From: a virus
IMG/VR virus record: IMGVR_UViG_3300045988_183361
Length of the DNA: 64,000 nt
Strand: one strand, 5' to 3'
Each line of letters starts with the position of its first letter. The first letter of the stretch is position 1. Both the position numbers and the translations under genes were made by a program. Under the pieces are notes generated by a model that had not been told where the DNA came from, did not search any database, and saw only the letters and a list, made by a program, of their open reading frames with translations. This document shows positions 4,837-61,081 of the stretch, piece by piece.

Positions 4837-4852
4837 TATGACAGAAAAAATG
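4837..4852 (-). promoter_or_regulatory. TTTTTCTGTCATAT box (putative promoter core) for 3859..4800
   Basis: conserved box about 37 nt upstream of ATG, preceded by an AT hairpin and U-run. Confidence 0.5.
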
Positions 4853-4997
4853 AATTATTATTTTACATAAAATAATTGATGTGTGTTAAAATAAGACAGC
4901 AACTAAATGTAAATGCCTTTTATTTATTAAAATATCCCGTTTTTGTGTTTTTCTAAGCACTTTATTGGGTATACTATGCCTTCACTTGTAAAAAATA

Positions 4998-5373
4998 ATA
5001 ACAATATATTGTACGTTTATTGTTATATATTAGTTTAATATGTTAACTTTATTAACAATATATAGTTATTTAAGATTTATTAAAATATAGCTAAGATACA
5101 AAAATAATAACAATATATAGATATAAAATATGATTTAATATACATTAAAAATAACAACATTATGTTATAGAATAGAAAAATTTGTGTAATAAAATTAACA
5201 ATATATAGCTAAATATTTGATACATAAATGTAATAATGATAACAATATATAGTAATGTATTATCCGTTGCATAGCCAATAAAATGCCTTATATGTGTCAG
5301 AATAATACCATGATGTAGTTATCATATGCTGATTTAAGAGATAAAAAATGTTAATTTGATAACATATAATTGG
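4998..5373. repeat. iteron-like array: at least 5 direct copies of (A/T)TAACAATATATAG plus degenerate copies
   Basis: copies at about 4998, 5051, 5105, 5194, 5239 and variants at 5151 and 5358; spacing 45-55 bp; inside a 1.3-kb gene-free AT-rich region. Confidence 0.5.
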
Positions 5374-6081
5374 TAATATTAGCAATTATATATGGATTAA
5401 TTGGGTACAATAGACTGTATGATCAGTGAGAAAAATAAATATAACTGATTAATGGGATATAATTATTATTTACTAAAGTTAATTAATGGAATTACTGGAA
5501 ACATATATAGGAATGATAGAGTAAAGGAAATAGATCTAAGAGCAAATAAGAAAGAATTAGTGTATAAGAATGCAGCTATTGGAGATAGAAATGGGATTAT
5601 TGGGCTTACTAAGGCATTTGCAGGGCGAAGAATAGATTTACAGGAATCTAGTAATCATAATTTTTGTAATTATCATATATTATATATGAGGGAATTATAT
5701 TATTTATTAGTGTATTAAAGGCATTAATTGGGATAAATGAAGTGCTTGCTAGAGACAGGTAAGGAATTACCAGGGAAATAAACACAAAATGTATTAAGCT
5801 GATAAATGATATTGTATAAGGATATGACAATAATAGTTATACGCTTTTAATCCTTAATAATATTCTGGCGGTTATTATATTAAGTCTTAAAACGCTATTA
5901 AGGAATAATCAAATGTATTATATAAGGCTCTAATTTTTATATTTTAATAATAAAAAGCGTATCAATGGAAAAGAAAATAATAAAAAGGTTCTAAAAAAGG
6001 TGTATGACATATTACACTTAAAGGAAGTGTAATCATAAAAAAAATACAGCTACCTATTGATAACTGCATTTTATTTATATA

Positions 6082-7110
6082 TTACATAAAAGATTGTATA
6101 CTATATCCTTTCCGTCTGAAACGAACTCTAATCTTTTTTATTGCTTTTGATTCAATCTGTCTGATTCGTTCTCTGGATACATTCCATTCAGTACCTATAT
6201 CTTGTAAAGTTTTAACTTTTGAGCCATATCCCATTCTACCCTTAATTACATATAATTCTCTAGGAGTGAGACAATCTTCAACTTCTTTCCAAAGCAGTTC
6301 TTTCATTTCTTTTTGAATAATCGTATCTTCAACTTTAGGTTCAGGAGCTTCTATATAATCAGCCAAACATGAATCGTCATGGCCTTCATCACTTTGAATA
6401 GGTGCATCTAATGAAACCAATTCATTAAAACTCTGAATATGCACAAGCATTTCTTTAGTTAAAAGAGGATATCTTTGTTTTACTACATCATATAATTCAT
6501 CAATTGTAGGTTTTCTTTGAAGTTTATTAGTTAAATCCACAAATGTAGTCTTAACAAAAGAATCCTGTTCTCTTACATGTACAGGGAATCTAACTAATAA
6601 ATCATAATTGGCTAATTCTCTATATATACTCTGTCTAATCCAATGAGTTGCATAAGTTGAAAATGCATATCCTAATTTATAATCAAACATTTGTATAGCT
6701 CTGTATAACCCGAAAATACCGGCCTGACATAAATCATCCATTTCAAAACTTTGCGTTTTAGCTGTAACAGCTTTAGCAATACTGATGACTAAACGCATAT
6801 TAGATAAAATCAATTTTTCGGTTATTTCTTTTTTCTTTTTAGGATGTTTTTTTATCTCTTCAAATAATTTAAGAGTTTCATCTTTGGATAAAACCGGATA
6901 ATCAGCGAATGATTTAATATAATAAGTTATATTATTTTCTAATAATAGTTTCTCTTTTTCATTTAAAATCTCTTTATCATTTAAAATATCGGTATAATTA
7001 TCCTCTGATAAAATATTTATGTTTTCTATTGGTTTATTTGTATCAAATAATTCATCAATATATTCATCTTTATTGTTTTTTTTATTTAATAATAAATTCT
7101 TATCTGCCAT
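6082..7110 (-). CDS. sigma-70 family RNA polymerase sigma factor (regions 2 and 4 present)
   Basis: region 2-like YAFSTYATHWIRQSI; region 4.2 HTH LQDIGTEWNVSRERIRQIESKAIKKIR. Confidence 0.85.
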   Translation of the reverse strand: MADKNLLLNKKNNKDEYIDELFDTNKPIENINILSEDNYTDILNDKEILNEKEKLLLENNITYYIKSFADYPVLSKDETLKLFEEIKKHPKKKKEITEKLILSNMRLVISIAKAVTAKTQSFEMDDLCQAGIFGLYRAIQMFDYKLGYAFSTYATHWIRQSIYRELANYDLLVRFPVHVREQDSFVKTTFVDLTNKLQRKPTIDELYDVVKQRYPLLTKEMLVHIQSFNELVSLDAPIQSDEGHDDSCLADYIEAPEPKVEDTIIQKEMKELLWKEVEDCLTPRELYVIKGRMGYGSKVKTLQDIGTEWNVSRERIRQIESKAIKKIRVRFRRKGYSIQSFM

Positions 7111-7122
7111 AAAAATCTCCTC

Positions 7123-7518
7123 TTAACATTGATGTCCTAGCATTTTTAATTCATTATTTGCTTCTATTTTCATTGTACATATTCTACTAATTGCATTATA
7201 TGTAAATTTAGATTGCTCTTCAAAGGTTCCTAATATATCTCGTTTAATCATAAGCTCTTTACATTTATCTGAAGACTCTTTGTGTAATTTCATTTCTTTT
7301 ACCATTGAATCTAAAATAGAATGCATTGAGGAAAAATAGGTAAAATAATTTCCTACTTCACTCAATAAATTTCCTATTTCCAATAAATCTATTTCATCTG
7401 ATCTAGGAATTTCTTTCTTAAAATTAATTAAATACCATTCATATAAATCCGTTGAAGAAGCTTCAAGGATATCACTTATAGACTTATTTTTTAATTCATT
7501 ATTCATATTTGTTTCCAT
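7123..7518 (-). CDS. hypothetical protein, co-transcribed between CPBP protease and sigma factor
   Basis: ORF track; tight spacing to flanking genes. Confidence 0.5.
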   Translation of the reverse strand: METNMNNELKNKSISDILEASSTDLYEWYLINFKKEIPRSDEIDLLEIGNLLSEVGNYFTYFSSMHSILDSMVKEMKLHKESSDKCKELMIKRDILGTFEEQSKFTYNAISRICTMKIEANNELKMLGHQC

Positions 7519-7521
7519 AAA

Positions 7522-59131: not shown

Positions 59132-59295
59132 TTAAAAAAAGAGTTCAACGTGACTAAGTAAGATCATGCTTACCGTTACCGCTGAACCCTTTTTATAAAA
59201 AATATAATTAGCTCCTTTATTTTTAGCTAATAATAATATGACAGAATTAAAATAAATAAAGCGTAGAATAATTAATTCTACGCTTTACACAATCA

Positions 59296-59439
59296 TTATT
59301 TATTAATTTTTTTCTGATGTAAATTATTTATAAAAGTGATTGCCTCAGGAGGCAATGGAGAAAATCTATATACTTTTTTCATTTCTTCTTCGCAGCATAT
59401 ACCTGCTCGTTTTAATTCATATATATTTTTCTTTTTCAT
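59296..59439 (-). CDS. small hypothetical protein (about 47 aa)
   Basis: own translation MKKKNIYELKRAGICCEEEMKK...; SD GGAGGAAATTTT; followed by a terminator and a TGTCATAT box. Confidence 0.3.
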   Translation of the reverse strand: MKKKNIYELKRAGICCEEEMKKVYRFSPLPPEAITFINNLHQKKINK

Positions 59440-59451
59440 AAAATTTCCTCC

Positions 59452-60738
59452 TTACTGAGCTGCTGTAAATTCAACAAAATATTCTATAGTACTTTGCTGA
59501 TCCTGATATACAATAATTTCATCATTACATAAACTATGGCCCGCATGAGCAAAAGTACAATGAGCGCCAGGACATCTCTGTTGTAAAACATTATAAGTTA
59601 AATCACTTTCAGCAGATGTTACATCATATGTTTTACCAGTAGCCACTTTGAAAATGCCTAAATATCCAATTGCTTCACTACCATGAGTCCAATAAGAACC
59701 GGAGCTTGAAGTATATCCCATCGATTTTTTTGCCTTATTAGCAAAATATGTACCTAATCCAAACATCTTTCCATTAGTTACAACTCCAACTGGATTTATT
59801 GTTAAACCATTAGTTATAATGGACCAGAAGTTTTCTGATCTTGAACCATGAAATAAATGAGATATTCCATTATTTTCATCACTTAAATTTTCTTTAGCAC
59901 AATATTCATTGAAAGCCTTTTCGGTCTTTTTATTAATGATTCTCCAAGCATTTTTATATTGCTTTGCATTTTCTCCCATAAGCTTCTTGATTTTAGTCTC
60001 TTCTTCGTCAGATACAGGTCTCCATTCAAGTCCATAGGCCTGAAGAACCGTTGGCATAGTGTCATATTTAGCTAAATTACTATTAGATCTTACCTGAGAA
60101 TACACAATATCAAACAGTTCCTGCTCTTTGTCAATGATATCAACAAATTCAATCTTTCTTTTAGCCAAATGTTTAGATAAATTATCCATTCTTCTAGGAA
60201 TTGCAGCATATAATACTTTTAATTTATTATTAAACTCTGCAATTGACATAGAATCATGGTTCTTAGCTAATTCAGTCAAAATCGAATTACCATATTCAAG
60301 CATTTCATCTGAAATATCTTCAACTGAAGTTGAATAATTATCTGAAATAACCTTATTAGCGTATGAAAGCAGCTTTGTTATAATAGAATCAACAGAGAAA
60401 ATTCCAGTCTGTGCATATGTGCCGCCATTAAAACTCAAACCTTTTTTTGTAATCTTTTTTTTCTCCATTTTTTGAGTCTTTGTAAGCAACCAACCTCTAT
60501 TTACCTTAGACAAATAAAAAGAATCCCAATTAGTCATAGGAAGTGAATATGTCCTTGGCCTGTTCCTTCCTATCCTGATTCCAATTCTACCTTCAGTAAC
60601 ATCAAAAACATTCTTATTATTGGCATTAACCTGCATAATAATCTGTTGGTTATTACCTTTACCTGTAGCTGTTTCTGCAACATAATTAAGTTCCAAATAT
60701 TCATGATTTGGTATTGTATTTATATCTGCCTGTTTCAT
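59452..60738 (-). CDS. PARP-like ADP-ribosyltransferase (WGR-like + helical + catalytic H-G-S / Y / E)
   Basis: LFHGSRSENFWSIITNGL, GLGTYFANKAKKSMGY, NDEIIVYQ match PARP catalytic-domain motifs. Confidence 0.6.
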   Translation of the reverse strand: MKQADINTIPNHEYLELNYVAETATGKGNNQQIIMQVNANNKNVFDVTEGRIGIRIGRNRPRTYSLPMTNWDSFYLSKVNRGWLLTKTQKMEKKKITKKGLSFNGGTYAQTGIFSVDSIITKLLSYANKVISDNYSTSVEDISDEMLEYGNSILTELAKNHDSMSIAEFNNKLKVLYAAIPRRMDNLSKHLAKRKIEFVDIIDKEQELFDIVYSQVRSNSNLAKYDTMPTVLQAYGLEWRPVSDEEETKIKKLMGENAKQYKNAWRIINKKTEKAFNEYCAKENLSDENNGISHLFHGSRSENFWSIITNGLTINPVGVVTNGKMFGLGTYFANKAKKSMGYTSSSGSYWTHGSEAIGYLGIFKVATGKTYDVTSAESDLTYNVLQQRCPGAHCTFAHAGHSLCNDEIIVYQDQQSTIEYFVEFTAAQ

Positions 60739-60754
60739 AAATCCTCCTTATATA

Positions 60755-60955
60755 TTACGCAATTTTATCTTTAAATTTTTCGAAAGCTTCTTTTGTAAAT
60801 TGTGTATACATCCCAGAATCATTTCTTACTGATACGAAATCGCCAAATGCTATACATTCATATGTATGCCCTTTTGTCCAGCATCCATAGAATGATTCAT
60901 TAGTATCAGATAAAGTTTTATTTGCCTGCACATTAAAAACAATATGTTCTATCAT
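60755..60955 (-). CDS. hypothetical protein
   Basis: ORF track; TGTCAG-variant box at 60995. Confidence 0.45.
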   Translation of the reverse strand: MIEHIVFNVQANKTLSDTNESFYGCWTKGHTYECIAFGDFVSVRNDSGMYTQFTKEAFEKFKDKIA

Positions 60956-61081
60956 TTTGAATACGCCTCCTTTAATTAATTGATGTAATATATATGTCAG
61001 AAAAATAAAATTGGATATAAATTTGTAAATTCATTTTATATATAGTATATTATTAAATATTGTAAAATTAAGGAGAGTAAA

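Follow-up and report, generated by a model that had tools for sequence, protein, structure and literature searches.

The 64,000-nucleotide (nt) stretch of DNA analyzed here (the window; IMG/VR virus record IMGVR_UViG_3300045988_183361) belongs to a mobile element in which nearly every transcription unit is preceded by a copy of one short sequence, hereafter the box (CTGTCATA on the gene strand), and which encodes an RpoD-like sigma-70 family factor. Read on the plus strand as TATGACAG, the box occurs 30 times, compared with three occurrences on the opposite strand (P = 1.4e-6 for the strand bias of exact copies), and dinucleotide-preserving shuffles, used as the null for the exact count, yield a mean of 2.2 and a maximum of 7 copies. 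Moreover, 28 of the 30 exact gene-strand boxes fall between genes, although coding sequence makes up 83% of the window (binomial P = 7e-20). An initial annotation of this DNA had held that equal numbers of boxes inside genes and in the opposite orientation would speak against a uniform expression cassette, and these biases are the reverse of that pattern. The two exact boxes that are not intergenic are located at 2866, within the HNH coding sequence of an IscB-type protein, where the match is presumably a chance copy, and at 27028, in the last codons of the upstream open reading frame (ORF), where the box nonetheless precedes the next ATG by 35 nt. The 38 box positions listed in the initial annotation are all genuine and at most 2 nt off: 29 are exact matches to CTGTCATA and nine carry one mismatch (CTGTCATT four times, and CTGTCATG, GTGTCATA, ATGTCATA, CAGTCATA and CTGACATA). 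Two exact plus-strand copies of CTGTCATA (29735-29742 and 40559-40566) lie antisense within the helicase and recJ genes, and these may be chance copies or antisense promoters.

The distribution of boxes follows the boundaries of transcription units. Between 4.8 and 61 kb, a box is present in 34 of the 41 gaps of at least 60 nt that separate genes, and in none of the 13 shorter gaps (box 27028 adjoins a 13-nt gap and lies within the upstream ORF); genes in tight operons have no box. Box orientation also tracks gene orientation, in that the sole plus-strand gene, which is TnpB-like, has its own plus-strand box, and a reverse-strand Mob_Pre gene in the related locus L010 has a reverse box 36 nt upstream. 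When over-long ORF calls are trimmed, 26 of the 38 boxes lie 29-41 nt before an ATG that is preceded by a Shine-Dalgarno (SD) sequence, with a median of 37 nt. Eight further boxes have leaders of 46-159 nt, and for the other four (34975, 38502, 56563 and 52779) no SD-preceded ORF is called within 160 nt. In the case of 52779 the SD falls just beyond the spacing rule used, and for 56563 a non-coding transcript is possible. An Rfam scan returned no match at the boxes, and its only match in the window is a HEARO RNA.

Most boxes are also closely associated with intrinsic terminators, as the initial annotation had noted. A hairpin of -8 kcal/mol or better is found within 55 nt upstream of 27 of the 38 boxes, compared with 22% of random positions, and between 4 and 24 kb there are 15 consensus terminators where 5.1 are expected, a three-fold excess, mostly abutting a box. 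With a terminator just upstream, the box would normally be outside upstream transcripts. The further statement that there is no conserved -35 element holds for most boxes and fails for eight of the 38, which carry TTTATG(T/C)AA(A/G)A exactly 16 nt upstream of the first box position (C1). At these promoters, which we call class A, the terminator T-run merges into the upstream element and not into the box. The same element is found at identical spacing in the related loci L003, L016, L010, L011 and L001.

The leaders of two genes had been singled out as nearly identical. Leaders 27028 and 31011 are indeed the most similar of 703 pairs (score 22, compared with a mean of 3.4 and a standard deviation of 5.2), and much of this identity consists of the shared consensus, namely the box, TATCAAA and the SD. 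The proposed co-regulation of the methyltransferase and helicase genes rests on this similarity, which is largely family consensus, and we do not retain it. Likewise, the label 'helicase-nuclease' is not upheld by Pfam, which sees only UvrD helicase domains. A separate feature of some leaders is a 57-nt repeat (TTATCGAAGAATAGCAAGAAAACTCCATCCGACAATAGTCGGTTGTGAGTAGTTCAT on the gene strand) at 47812-47880, 34880-34948, 25505-25573, 14702-14774 and 13065-13133, all on the minus strand, and at approximately 18524-18592 in L011 and 6206-6276 in L003. The repeat forms a small hairpin with three compensatory pairs, has no Rfam family, is found downstream of two boxes, within long leaders, and stands in two gaps instead of a box. 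On the opposite strand, an 18-codon ORF, MNYSQ(L/P)TIVGW(S/N)FL(A/T)ILR, is open in three of the four closest window copies and in the L011 copy.

A position matrix of the 38 sites establishes that box positions 1-7 are fixed in 36-38 of them and that conservation extends to position 9 (C1 36, T2 37, G3 38, T4 37, C5 38, A6 38, T7 38, A8 33, T9 32). A second conserved pair, T16 (32/38) and A17 (28/38), lies further downstream. The complete layout of a site is a T-rich run, a T at matrix position -1, box positions 1-9, T16/A17, an A/T-rich leader and an SD at about +30. The earliest SD begins at position 26 (site 8463), and so the start site must precede approximately position 22. We infer a register in which T2-G3 represent -15/-14, C5-A6-T7-A8-T9-w10 represent -12 to -7, and T16/A17 represent -1/+1, and this assignment is supported by the T16/A17 pair and by the variant hexamer TATATT of a relative described below. 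TG would then stand one base before the hexamer, as is characteristic of extended -10 promoters (T2 in 37 and G3 in 38 of 38 sites), position 10 (A 22, T 13, C 2, G 1) would be -7, and the upstream element of class A promoters would span -43 to -33. Of 19 independent boxes in promoter context, drawn from four diverged relatives, 17 have a pyrimidine at position 16 and 18 have a purine at position 17.

Other registers and other promoter types fit these data less well. T16/A17 cannot be the -12/-11 of a downstream -10 element, for which the SD at position 26 of site 8463 leaves no start-site room. Taking TGTCAT or CTGTCA as the hexamer, with a 17-18 nt spacer to the upstream element, is less likely, as this would place G or T at -11 and leave T16/A17 unexplained. 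The canonical -35 position has no information content in the matrix of 38 sites, and TTGACA-N17-TATAAT pairs are not enriched between 4 and 24 kb (129, compared with 143 +/- 10 expected). Promoters of the sigmaE/sigmaK type share CATA with the box, but their expected -35 positions correspond here to an unconserved T-run or hairpin, and the sigma factor of the element is RpoD-like, not SigE/K/F/G-like. An extracytoplasmic function (ECF) type is unsupported for the same two reasons, the lack of a matching -35 and the RpoD-like character of the sigma. Finally, CTGTCAT resembles the CTGGCAC of sigma-54 promoters (-24/-12, TGGCAC-N5-TTGC), but the second G is T in 37 of 38 sites and there is no GC at the required spacing.

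The sigma-70 family factor recognized in the initial annotation carries Sigma70_r2 and Sigma70_r4 domains (Pfam). It aligns with the primary sigmas RpoD/SigA over residues 61-334, its top PDB matches are SigA/RpoD (E = 1e-43), and with an alignment that runs across regions 2, 3 and 4 and primary sigmas as its nearest matches it belongs to group 1/2 (RpoD-like). It is not an equivalog of housekeeping RpoD, scoring approximately 180 bits in NCBIfam against cut-offs of 354-800, and, unlike cellular matches, its regions 1.1, 1.2 and 3 are not recognized by Pfam. Regions 2.3/2.4 read YATHWIRQSIYR, compared with YATWWIRQAITR in Escherichia coli and all sampled cellular RpoD proteins, such that H156 and Y163 align to E. 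coli W433 and T440. By comparison, H178 and E181 preserve the TG-contacting residues H455 and E458, and the region 4.2 sequence RERIRQ is kept (R313, E314, R317 and Q318, corresponding to R584, E585, R588 and Q589). In E. coli sigma70, the substitutions Q437H and T440I suppress a change of -12 T:A to C:G (Hook-Barnard and Hinton, 2007; PMC2613000), and H455/E458 read the G:C pair at -14 (PMC2613000). A Tyr residue at the -12-contacting position fits C rather than T at -12.

Two other genes share the sigma operon. The 131-amino-acid (aa) protein encoded next to the sigma is more conserved among relatives (56-63% identity) than is the sigma itself (40-48% in the matching alignment). Its single-sequence AlphaFold model is a helical hairpin (predicted local distance difference test score, pLDDT, 74), profile searches against PDB and Pfam gave nothing significant, and Foldseek of the model against PDB gave only generic coiled-coil matches (E >= 0.4). 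It is conceivable that this soluble protein and the Rce1-like membrane protease that begins the operon act as an anti-sigma factor, a co-factor or a proteolytic switch. Elsewhere in the window, the 588-aa protein encoded at 42991-44757 on the minus strand has a weak sigma-70/LuxR-type helix-turn-helix (HTH) at residues 310-481 (TIGR02937, E = 3.5e-4; DesR-like, E = 0.44) and may be a second transcription factor of the element.

An exhaustive search places the sigma in a clade of five members that score 230-290 bits (near-copies of the query not counted), compared with at most 178 bits for cellular RpoD. All clade members with known context have a split dnaE, the Rce1-like protease, the small ORF and the sigma in synteny. 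None of the clade relatives P0003, P0121, P0122 and P0123 has Thr at the position of residue 440, where they carry I, I, R and Q, respectively, and the window sigma carries Y; at residue 433 they carry N, W, H and S. The box itself is found again in four diverged relatives, L003, L016, L141 and L017, and for three of these the sigma identity to the window is 47-51% (L003), 40-44% (L016) and 40-42% (L017). L003 uses CTGTCATAT, with C at -12, and this sequence is also used by L016, which has both C and T at this position, and by L141, a relative in the RecA region whose sigma lies outside the sequence covered. L141 has C at -12 and contains 13 forward and two reverse boxes in 21 kb. L017, which has Arg at residue 440, mostly uses CTTATATAT or CTTGTATAT, with TATATT at positions 5-10 and therefore T at -7, and with T16/A17 unchanged. 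When orthologous intergenic regions of the window and L003 are compared, the box and SD are kept and the terminator sequences have diverged. A box-plus-SD scan of IMG/VR found, among the matches listed, multiple copies only on the two contigs that carry the element sigma. As a side observation, L008 and L017 come from one gut sample (ZEEV15-1_SAMEA3664649, scaffolds 1 and 40), which therefore holds related elements with different sigma and box types. The initial annotation had named the element sigma as the obvious candidate reader of the box, and indirect evidence, namely the substituted -12-contacting residue, the retention of the box with the sigma clade and the covariation in L017, suggests that it is the best candidate.

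Taken together, these observations lead us to favor, with moderate confidence, the hypothesis that the box is the core of an element-specific promoter, probably read by host core RNA polymerase carrying the element's own RpoD-like sigma. Genes or small operons would each form an insulated transcription unit, wherein transcription from upstream ends at an intrinsic terminator whose T-run continues into T-CTGTCATAT. The box would act as an extended -10-type promoter for which a -35 hexamer is dispensable, and transcription would start at the pyrimidine/purine step T16/A17, 7 nt downstream, to yield a 5' untranslated region of approximately 28 nt with a strong SD. The sigma would read TG by means of its kept residues and C at -12 by means of the Tyr at position 440, and roughly one in five promoters would make use of the additional upstream element TTTATGTAAAA. 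Because the sigma operon itself lies behind a box, positive feedback is implied. The start site, the register and the pairing of sigma and box are all deductions from comparative data of this kind. A bolder version of the hypothesis holds that the whole replicon, with its genes for replication, repair, conjugation and cargo, is invisible to the host sigma, with a primary-like sigma of altered -12 specificity (T to C) as sole reader of a uniform, insulated promoter before almost every gene, so that the genes can be switched on and off as a block. We put this forward tentatively, and it is rather doubtful; such a block switch may operate through the module of Rce1-like protease and small protein that is co-transcribed with the sigma.

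Several observations sit uneasily with assigning the box to the element's sigma. The base at -7 is mostly A (22/38, with T in 13/38), which is atypical for the -10 elements of the sigma-70 family, and the sigma keeps canonical -35-reading residues, yet a -35 hexamer is missing from most of the promoters. Where class A promoters do have an upstream element, it sits 4-5 bp farther upstream than a canonical -35 would. Two box types stand side by side in L017, and thus one sigma with one specificity may be too simple a description, while the covariation of residue 440 with the -12 base covers just four lineages. Furthermore, if the box-driven sigma operon depends on its own product, then its first expression in a new host cell would call for a separate explanation. 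The part covered comes to about 100 kb of a 230-810 kb element, and a further polymerase or sigma could lie elsewhere.

The box might instead be read by a sigma factor of the host, either the primary factor, acting on an extended -10, or an alternative factor of the sporulation type, with the element sigma serving a smaller regulon. TG and A at -11 also mark ordinary extended -10 promoters, a common type in Firmicutes, and the -10 elements of Bacillus/Clostridium sigmaE, sigmaK and sigmaG resemble CATA. The closest cellular RecA homologues belong to Lachnospiraceae, a family that includes spore formers, and the TATATT variant of L017 is near the sigmaA consensus. However, C at -12 is invariant in 38 of 38 sites, and the cellular RpoD sequences all keep T440 and W433. 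The nine consecutive conserved positions go far beyond a general host -10, and only a T-run or hairpin is found where an AC or ATA-type -35 would lie, 16-18 nt upstream. In addition, the box-dense contigs in IMG/VR are, among the matches listed, only the two with the element sigma, and the clade of this sigma is substituted at precisely a residue that contacts -12. We therefore regard reading by a host sigma as unlikely. It is very unlikely that the box serves other transcription machinery of the element, be it a second sigma encoded beyond the portion covered or an RNA polymerase of a single-subunit or non-canonical type. Enzymes of this kind typically use compact promoters, about 17 bp long and ending at the start site, and the conserved block from -16 to -8, the conserved TA at the start and the missing -35 resemble the layout of single-subunit polymerase promoters. 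Room for such a gene exists in the larger part of the element beyond the portion examined, and the weak sigma-like/HTH protein at 42991-44757 is a second candidate factor. Against this, Pfam, NCBIfam and PHROG found no RNA polymerase-like protein among about 50 of the approximately 60 window ORFs, Pfam marks on called genes of flanking and relative loci include no polymerase, and the large proteins of no known family at 35514-38048 and 42991-44757 have no PDB match suggesting one. An RpoD-like sigma with matching substitutions is, by contrast, present and syntenic in all relatives.

Less probable still is an operator function, in which an element-encoded global silencer or activator would bind a box that overlaps promoters with an adjacent AT-rich -10. 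Large plasmids often have global regulators at many promoters (for example, KorA/KorB of IncP plasmids), and positions 7-12 (TATwTw) could act as a weak sigmaA -10. The box is nevertheless non-palindromic and its direction is strictly tied to that of the gene, no enrichment is seen for a separate -35/-10 pair, T16/A17 fits the register in which the box is the hexamer, and boxes at nearly all transcription units would leave no unregulated genes. The least credible proposal, in our estimation, is a role at the RNA level, in which the box would mark a processing site, stabilize the 5' end or form a translation-related part of the leader at a fixed distance from the SD. The highly uniform distance from box to ATG could be read in this way, but the 27 boxes directly downstream of a strong terminator would be mostly untranscribed from upstream, several boxes have no following ORF, and there is no conserved pairing partner.

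The favored arrangement, an element-specific promoter with its own sigma, is of a kind already known, since mobile-element sigmas and extended -10 promoters both have precedents, and it is the scale here that is unusually complete. The sites resemble extended -10 (TGn) promoters in having TG one base before the hexamer, an invariant A as the second base of the hexamer, no required -35, a pyrimidine/purine step 7 nt downstream and a candidate sigma that keeps H455/E458. They differ in their CATATw hexamer, with its invariant C at -12 and mostly A at -7, and in the additional fixation of C at -16 (36/38) and T at -13 (37/38), which makes nine contiguous positions. Short uniform promoters are also known from phages: the late promoters of T4 (TATAAATA) are -10-only and are read by gp55, and SPO1 has gp28 and gp33/34 promoters. 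The gp55 protein, a minimal and strongly diverged sigma, depends on gp33 and the sliding clamp, and it serves one temporal class of a lytic phage. In T4 and SPO1, as we propose for the window, a specificity factor of a mobile element redirects host core polymerase to a short uniform promoter; unlike those systems, the window encodes a full-length RpoD-like sigma and gives no sign of temporal classes or a virion module.

The closest analogue is SigN (ZpdN) of the Bacillus subtilis plasmid pBS32, a plasmid-encoded sigma-70-family factor (PMC6751061). SigN steers host core polymerase to a plasmid-restricted regulon that includes replication-type genes, and it is self-activating (PMC6751061). Its promoters, about a dozen, are bipartite, with a -35 of TTTACGT and a -10 near GATAAA/GATATA (PMC6751061). 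As a sigma, SigN is of the alternative, divergent type; it is induced by DNA damage and also has sigmaA promoters (PMC6751061). The window, by comparison, has an RpoD-like sigma and a -10-only promoter that stands before nearly every transcription unit. The substitution at residue 440 recalls the T440I/Q437H mutants of E. coli (PMC2613000), in that it accompanies C at -12 (Ile in P0003, Tyr in the window), but those are laboratory suppressors, whereas the change here is natural, is clade-wide and occurs together with W433H/N and other substitutions. What is unusual in the present case is the combination of a primary-like sigma, an invariant -12 C with a matching natural substitution, nine contiguous fixed positions, and, in a very large replicon, terminator-insulated transcription units that nearly all have a box in front.

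If the pairing is true, then the element would offer a natural orthogonal sigma/promoter pair from gut Firmicutes-type elements, with a compact promoter of approximately 17 bp that might be used for engineering Clostridia and Lachnospiraceae. It would follow that a giant plasmid-like replicon can bring almost its entire gene set under the control of a primary-like sigma that it encodes, in place of the host sigma, which bears on how such elements limit their cost, escape host regulation and become established after transfer. The variation of residue 440 and the -12 base among related elements is a ready-made test of the 35-year-old model of -12 recognition, and the box is a sensitive marker with which to find and bin fragments of this element family in metagenomes. 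The coordinates of the boxes, upstream elements, sigma operon and representative terminators are collected in Table 1.

Table 1. Boxes and associated features of the window; upstream elements lie 16 nt before the box of a class A promoter, and contexts name the gene or genes that follow a box.
Feature	Position	Strand	Context
RpoD-like sigma-70 family factor, 342 aa	6082..7110	-	
Conserved 131-aa helical protein	7123..7518	-	directly upstream of sigma in all relatives
Rce1-like (CPBP) membrane protease	7522..8433	-	first gene of sigma operon; syntenic in all relatives
Box CTGTCATA, class A	4837..4844	-	36 nt before ATG of DUF5688 gene 3859-4800
Box, class A	8463..8470	-	operon of Rce1-like 7522-8433, 131-aa ORF 7123-7518 and sigma 6082-7110
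Box	10268..10275	-	DnaE C-terminal piece 8546-10231
Box variant CTGTCATT	11243..11250	-	10623-11204
Box	12655..12662	-	5'-3' exonuclease, true start 12622
Box variant GTGTCATA	13035..13042	-	12731-12988
Box variant CTGTCATT	13653..13660	-	13159-13617
Box	15715..15722	-	15440-15676
Box variant CTGTCATG	19305..19312	-	DnaE PHP piece 17429-19270
Box	20572..20579	-	19382-20533
Box	21757..21764	-	20666-21715
Box	21909..21916	+	48 nt before TnpB-like gene 21965-23314
Box, class A	24858..24865	-	small ORF 24697-24810
Box	25753..25760	-	small ORF 25568-25717 and kinase gene 24932-25495
Box	27028..27035	-	methyltransferase 26096-26992; box within last codons of ORF 27006-27872
Box	27979..27986	-	Rce1-like gene 27006-27872, 106-nt gap
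Box	31011..31018	-	UvrD-family helicase 28056-30977
Box, class A	32908..32915	-	flotillin-like gene 31203-32777, 130-nt gap
Box variant CAGTCATA	33457..33464	-	32995-33420
Box	34774..34781	-	34466-34738 and primase-like gene 33531-34469
Box variant ATGTCATA	34975..34982	-	57-nt repeat element, no ORF
Box	35450..35457	-	34989-35411
Box	38502..38509	-	no SD-preceded ORF within 160 nt; next gene 35514-38048 begins 453 nt downstream
Box, class A	39668..39675	-	recA 38534-39628
Box	40247..40254	-	39719-40210
Box variant CTGTCATT	42130..42137	-	recJ, true start 42092
Box	42622..42629	-	42198-42584
Box, class A	44793..44800	-	588-aa HTH/sigma-like protein 42991-44757
Box, class A	47891..47898	-	UvrD helicase 45860-47785; 105-nt leader contains 57-nt repeat
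Box	48714..48721	-	47936-48679
Box	50811..50818	-	49428-50747, 63-nt gap
Box variant CTGTCATT	52041..52048	-	51789-52004
Box	52779..52786	-	52120-52734, 44-nt gap
Box	53946..53953	-	53604-53891
Box	56345..56352	-	penicillin-binding protein gene 53977-56310
Box, class A	56563..56570	-	no ORF ahead of next box
Box	59118..59125	-	HD-GYP gene 57863-59077
Box	59237..59244	-	tandem partner of box 59118, lying 119 nt upstream of it
Box variant CTGACATA	60993..61000	-	60755-60955 and PARP-domain gene 59452-60738
Upstream element TTTATGTAAAA	4861..4871	-	box 4837
Upstream element TTTATGTAAAG	8487..8497	-	box 8463
Upstream element TTTATGTAAAA	24882..24892	-	box 24858
Upstream element TTTATGTAAAA	32932..32942	-	box 32908
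Upstream element TTTATGTAAAA	39692..39702	-	box 39668
Upstream element TTTATGCAAGA	44817..44827	-	box 44793
Upstream element TTTATGTAAGA	47915..47925	-	box 47891
Upstream element ATTATGTAAAA	56587..56597	-	box 56563
Intrinsic terminator (example)	19318..19349	-	T-run enters box 19305
Intrinsic terminator (example)	12666..12695	-	T-run enters box 12655
Intrinsic terminator (example)	8502..8524	-	T-run enters upstream element of class A promoter 8463

The element itself looks like a plasmid-like replicon of 230-810 kb and not a plain phage, and the 'phage' label of the initial annotation is doubtful. Exact copies of window proteins occur on scaffolds of 228-812 kb from many gut metagenomes, and beside the window are genes for a VirD4-type (type IV) coupling protein and a Mob_Pre relaxase and, in some scaffolds, integrase insertions. 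In L009, three tandem tyrosine-recombinase genes (11603-15648) are inserted beside the right end of the window. No capsid, portal, terminase or tail gene appears among the Pfam and PHROG matches for the window and approximately 40 kb of flanks. Two fragments of 95-103 kb are recorded as viral in IMG/VR, and L003 encodes YopX and SocA domains. GC content is 0.25-0.33, and DnaE, RecJ, a penicillin-binding protein (PBP) and the sigma are all encoded within the window. The sigma cluster is present on hundreds of contigs. Close relatives are absent among species-representative genomes, the sigma scan of whose contigs found only distant cellular sigmas, and a megablast search with 24 kb found nothing in phage and plasmid collections. 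Among cellular RecA proteins, those of Lachnospiraceae come closest, at 73-75% identity.

A possible lead to the nature of this replicon is provided by 'Inocle', giant extrachromosomal elements of oral Streptococcus that are circular, 245-395 kb in size and 24-32% GC, and that carry VirB4/VirD4, DnaE, RecJ, PBP, sortase and a sigma annotated as 'RpoS' (PMC12340149). That paper contains no promoter analysis (PMC12340149). By description, the features shared with Inocle are an AT-rich giant replicon rich in insertion sequences (IS), VirD4, a split or whole DNA polymerase III alpha, RecJ, helicases, a bifunctional PBP, a sigma, and gene orientation that follows the replichore. Unlike Inocle, the present element is found in gut metagenomes on contigs of up to 812 kb, with RecA nearest to Lachnospiraceae and not Streptococcus; VirB4, sortase and circularity were not seen in the window plus flanks (approximately 100 kb of the element). 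The 'Hodor' gut megaplasmids (PMC12934698) were rejected as the host replicon, as their GC content is 45-47% compared with 28% here.

DNA polymerase III alpha is encoded in three minus-strand ORFs (17429-19270, 15781-16539 and 8546-10231). The first break is occupied by an HNH_3/NUMOD4 homing endonuclease gene (16702-17220), and the gaps on either side of it are box-free, GC-richer and intron-like in appearance. The second break contains approximately 5.5 kb of other genes in the window and one small ORF in L003 and L017. Downstream of the sigma gene, positions 4850-6080 form a 1.2-kb ORF-poor stretch with a GC content of 0.25 and five to six iteron-like copies of TAACAATATATAG (4991-5260), and a conserved hairpin followed by ATGTCATACAC at about 6003 is also found in L001 and L003. 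The stretch may function as an origin, as a partition site or as an array of regulatory sequences.

The cargo of the window includes a minus-strand block (53977-60738) that encodes the bifunctional PBP, a GGDEF cyclase, an HD-GYP phosphodiesterase and a PARP-domain protein, and further envelope-type genes are the flotillin-like gene (31203-32777) and those of the two Rce1-like proteases. Such envelope and cyclic di-GMP functions would be unusual for a phage. An IscB-type RRXRR+HNH protein (2327-3586) adjoins a HEARO/omega RNA (3665-3878; Rfam, 109.8 bits), and this minus-strand unit (2327-3878) is absent in L001, L011 and L013 and present in L012, indicating a recent mobile insertion. Two TnpB/IS605 OrfB-like genes are located at 21965-23314 (plus strand) and 62487-63782 (minus strand). 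The sequence CTGACATACCACATTAAAACTAAATA near 23380 recurs beside IS605-type genes in L001 and L011, and may be an element end or an omega RNA.

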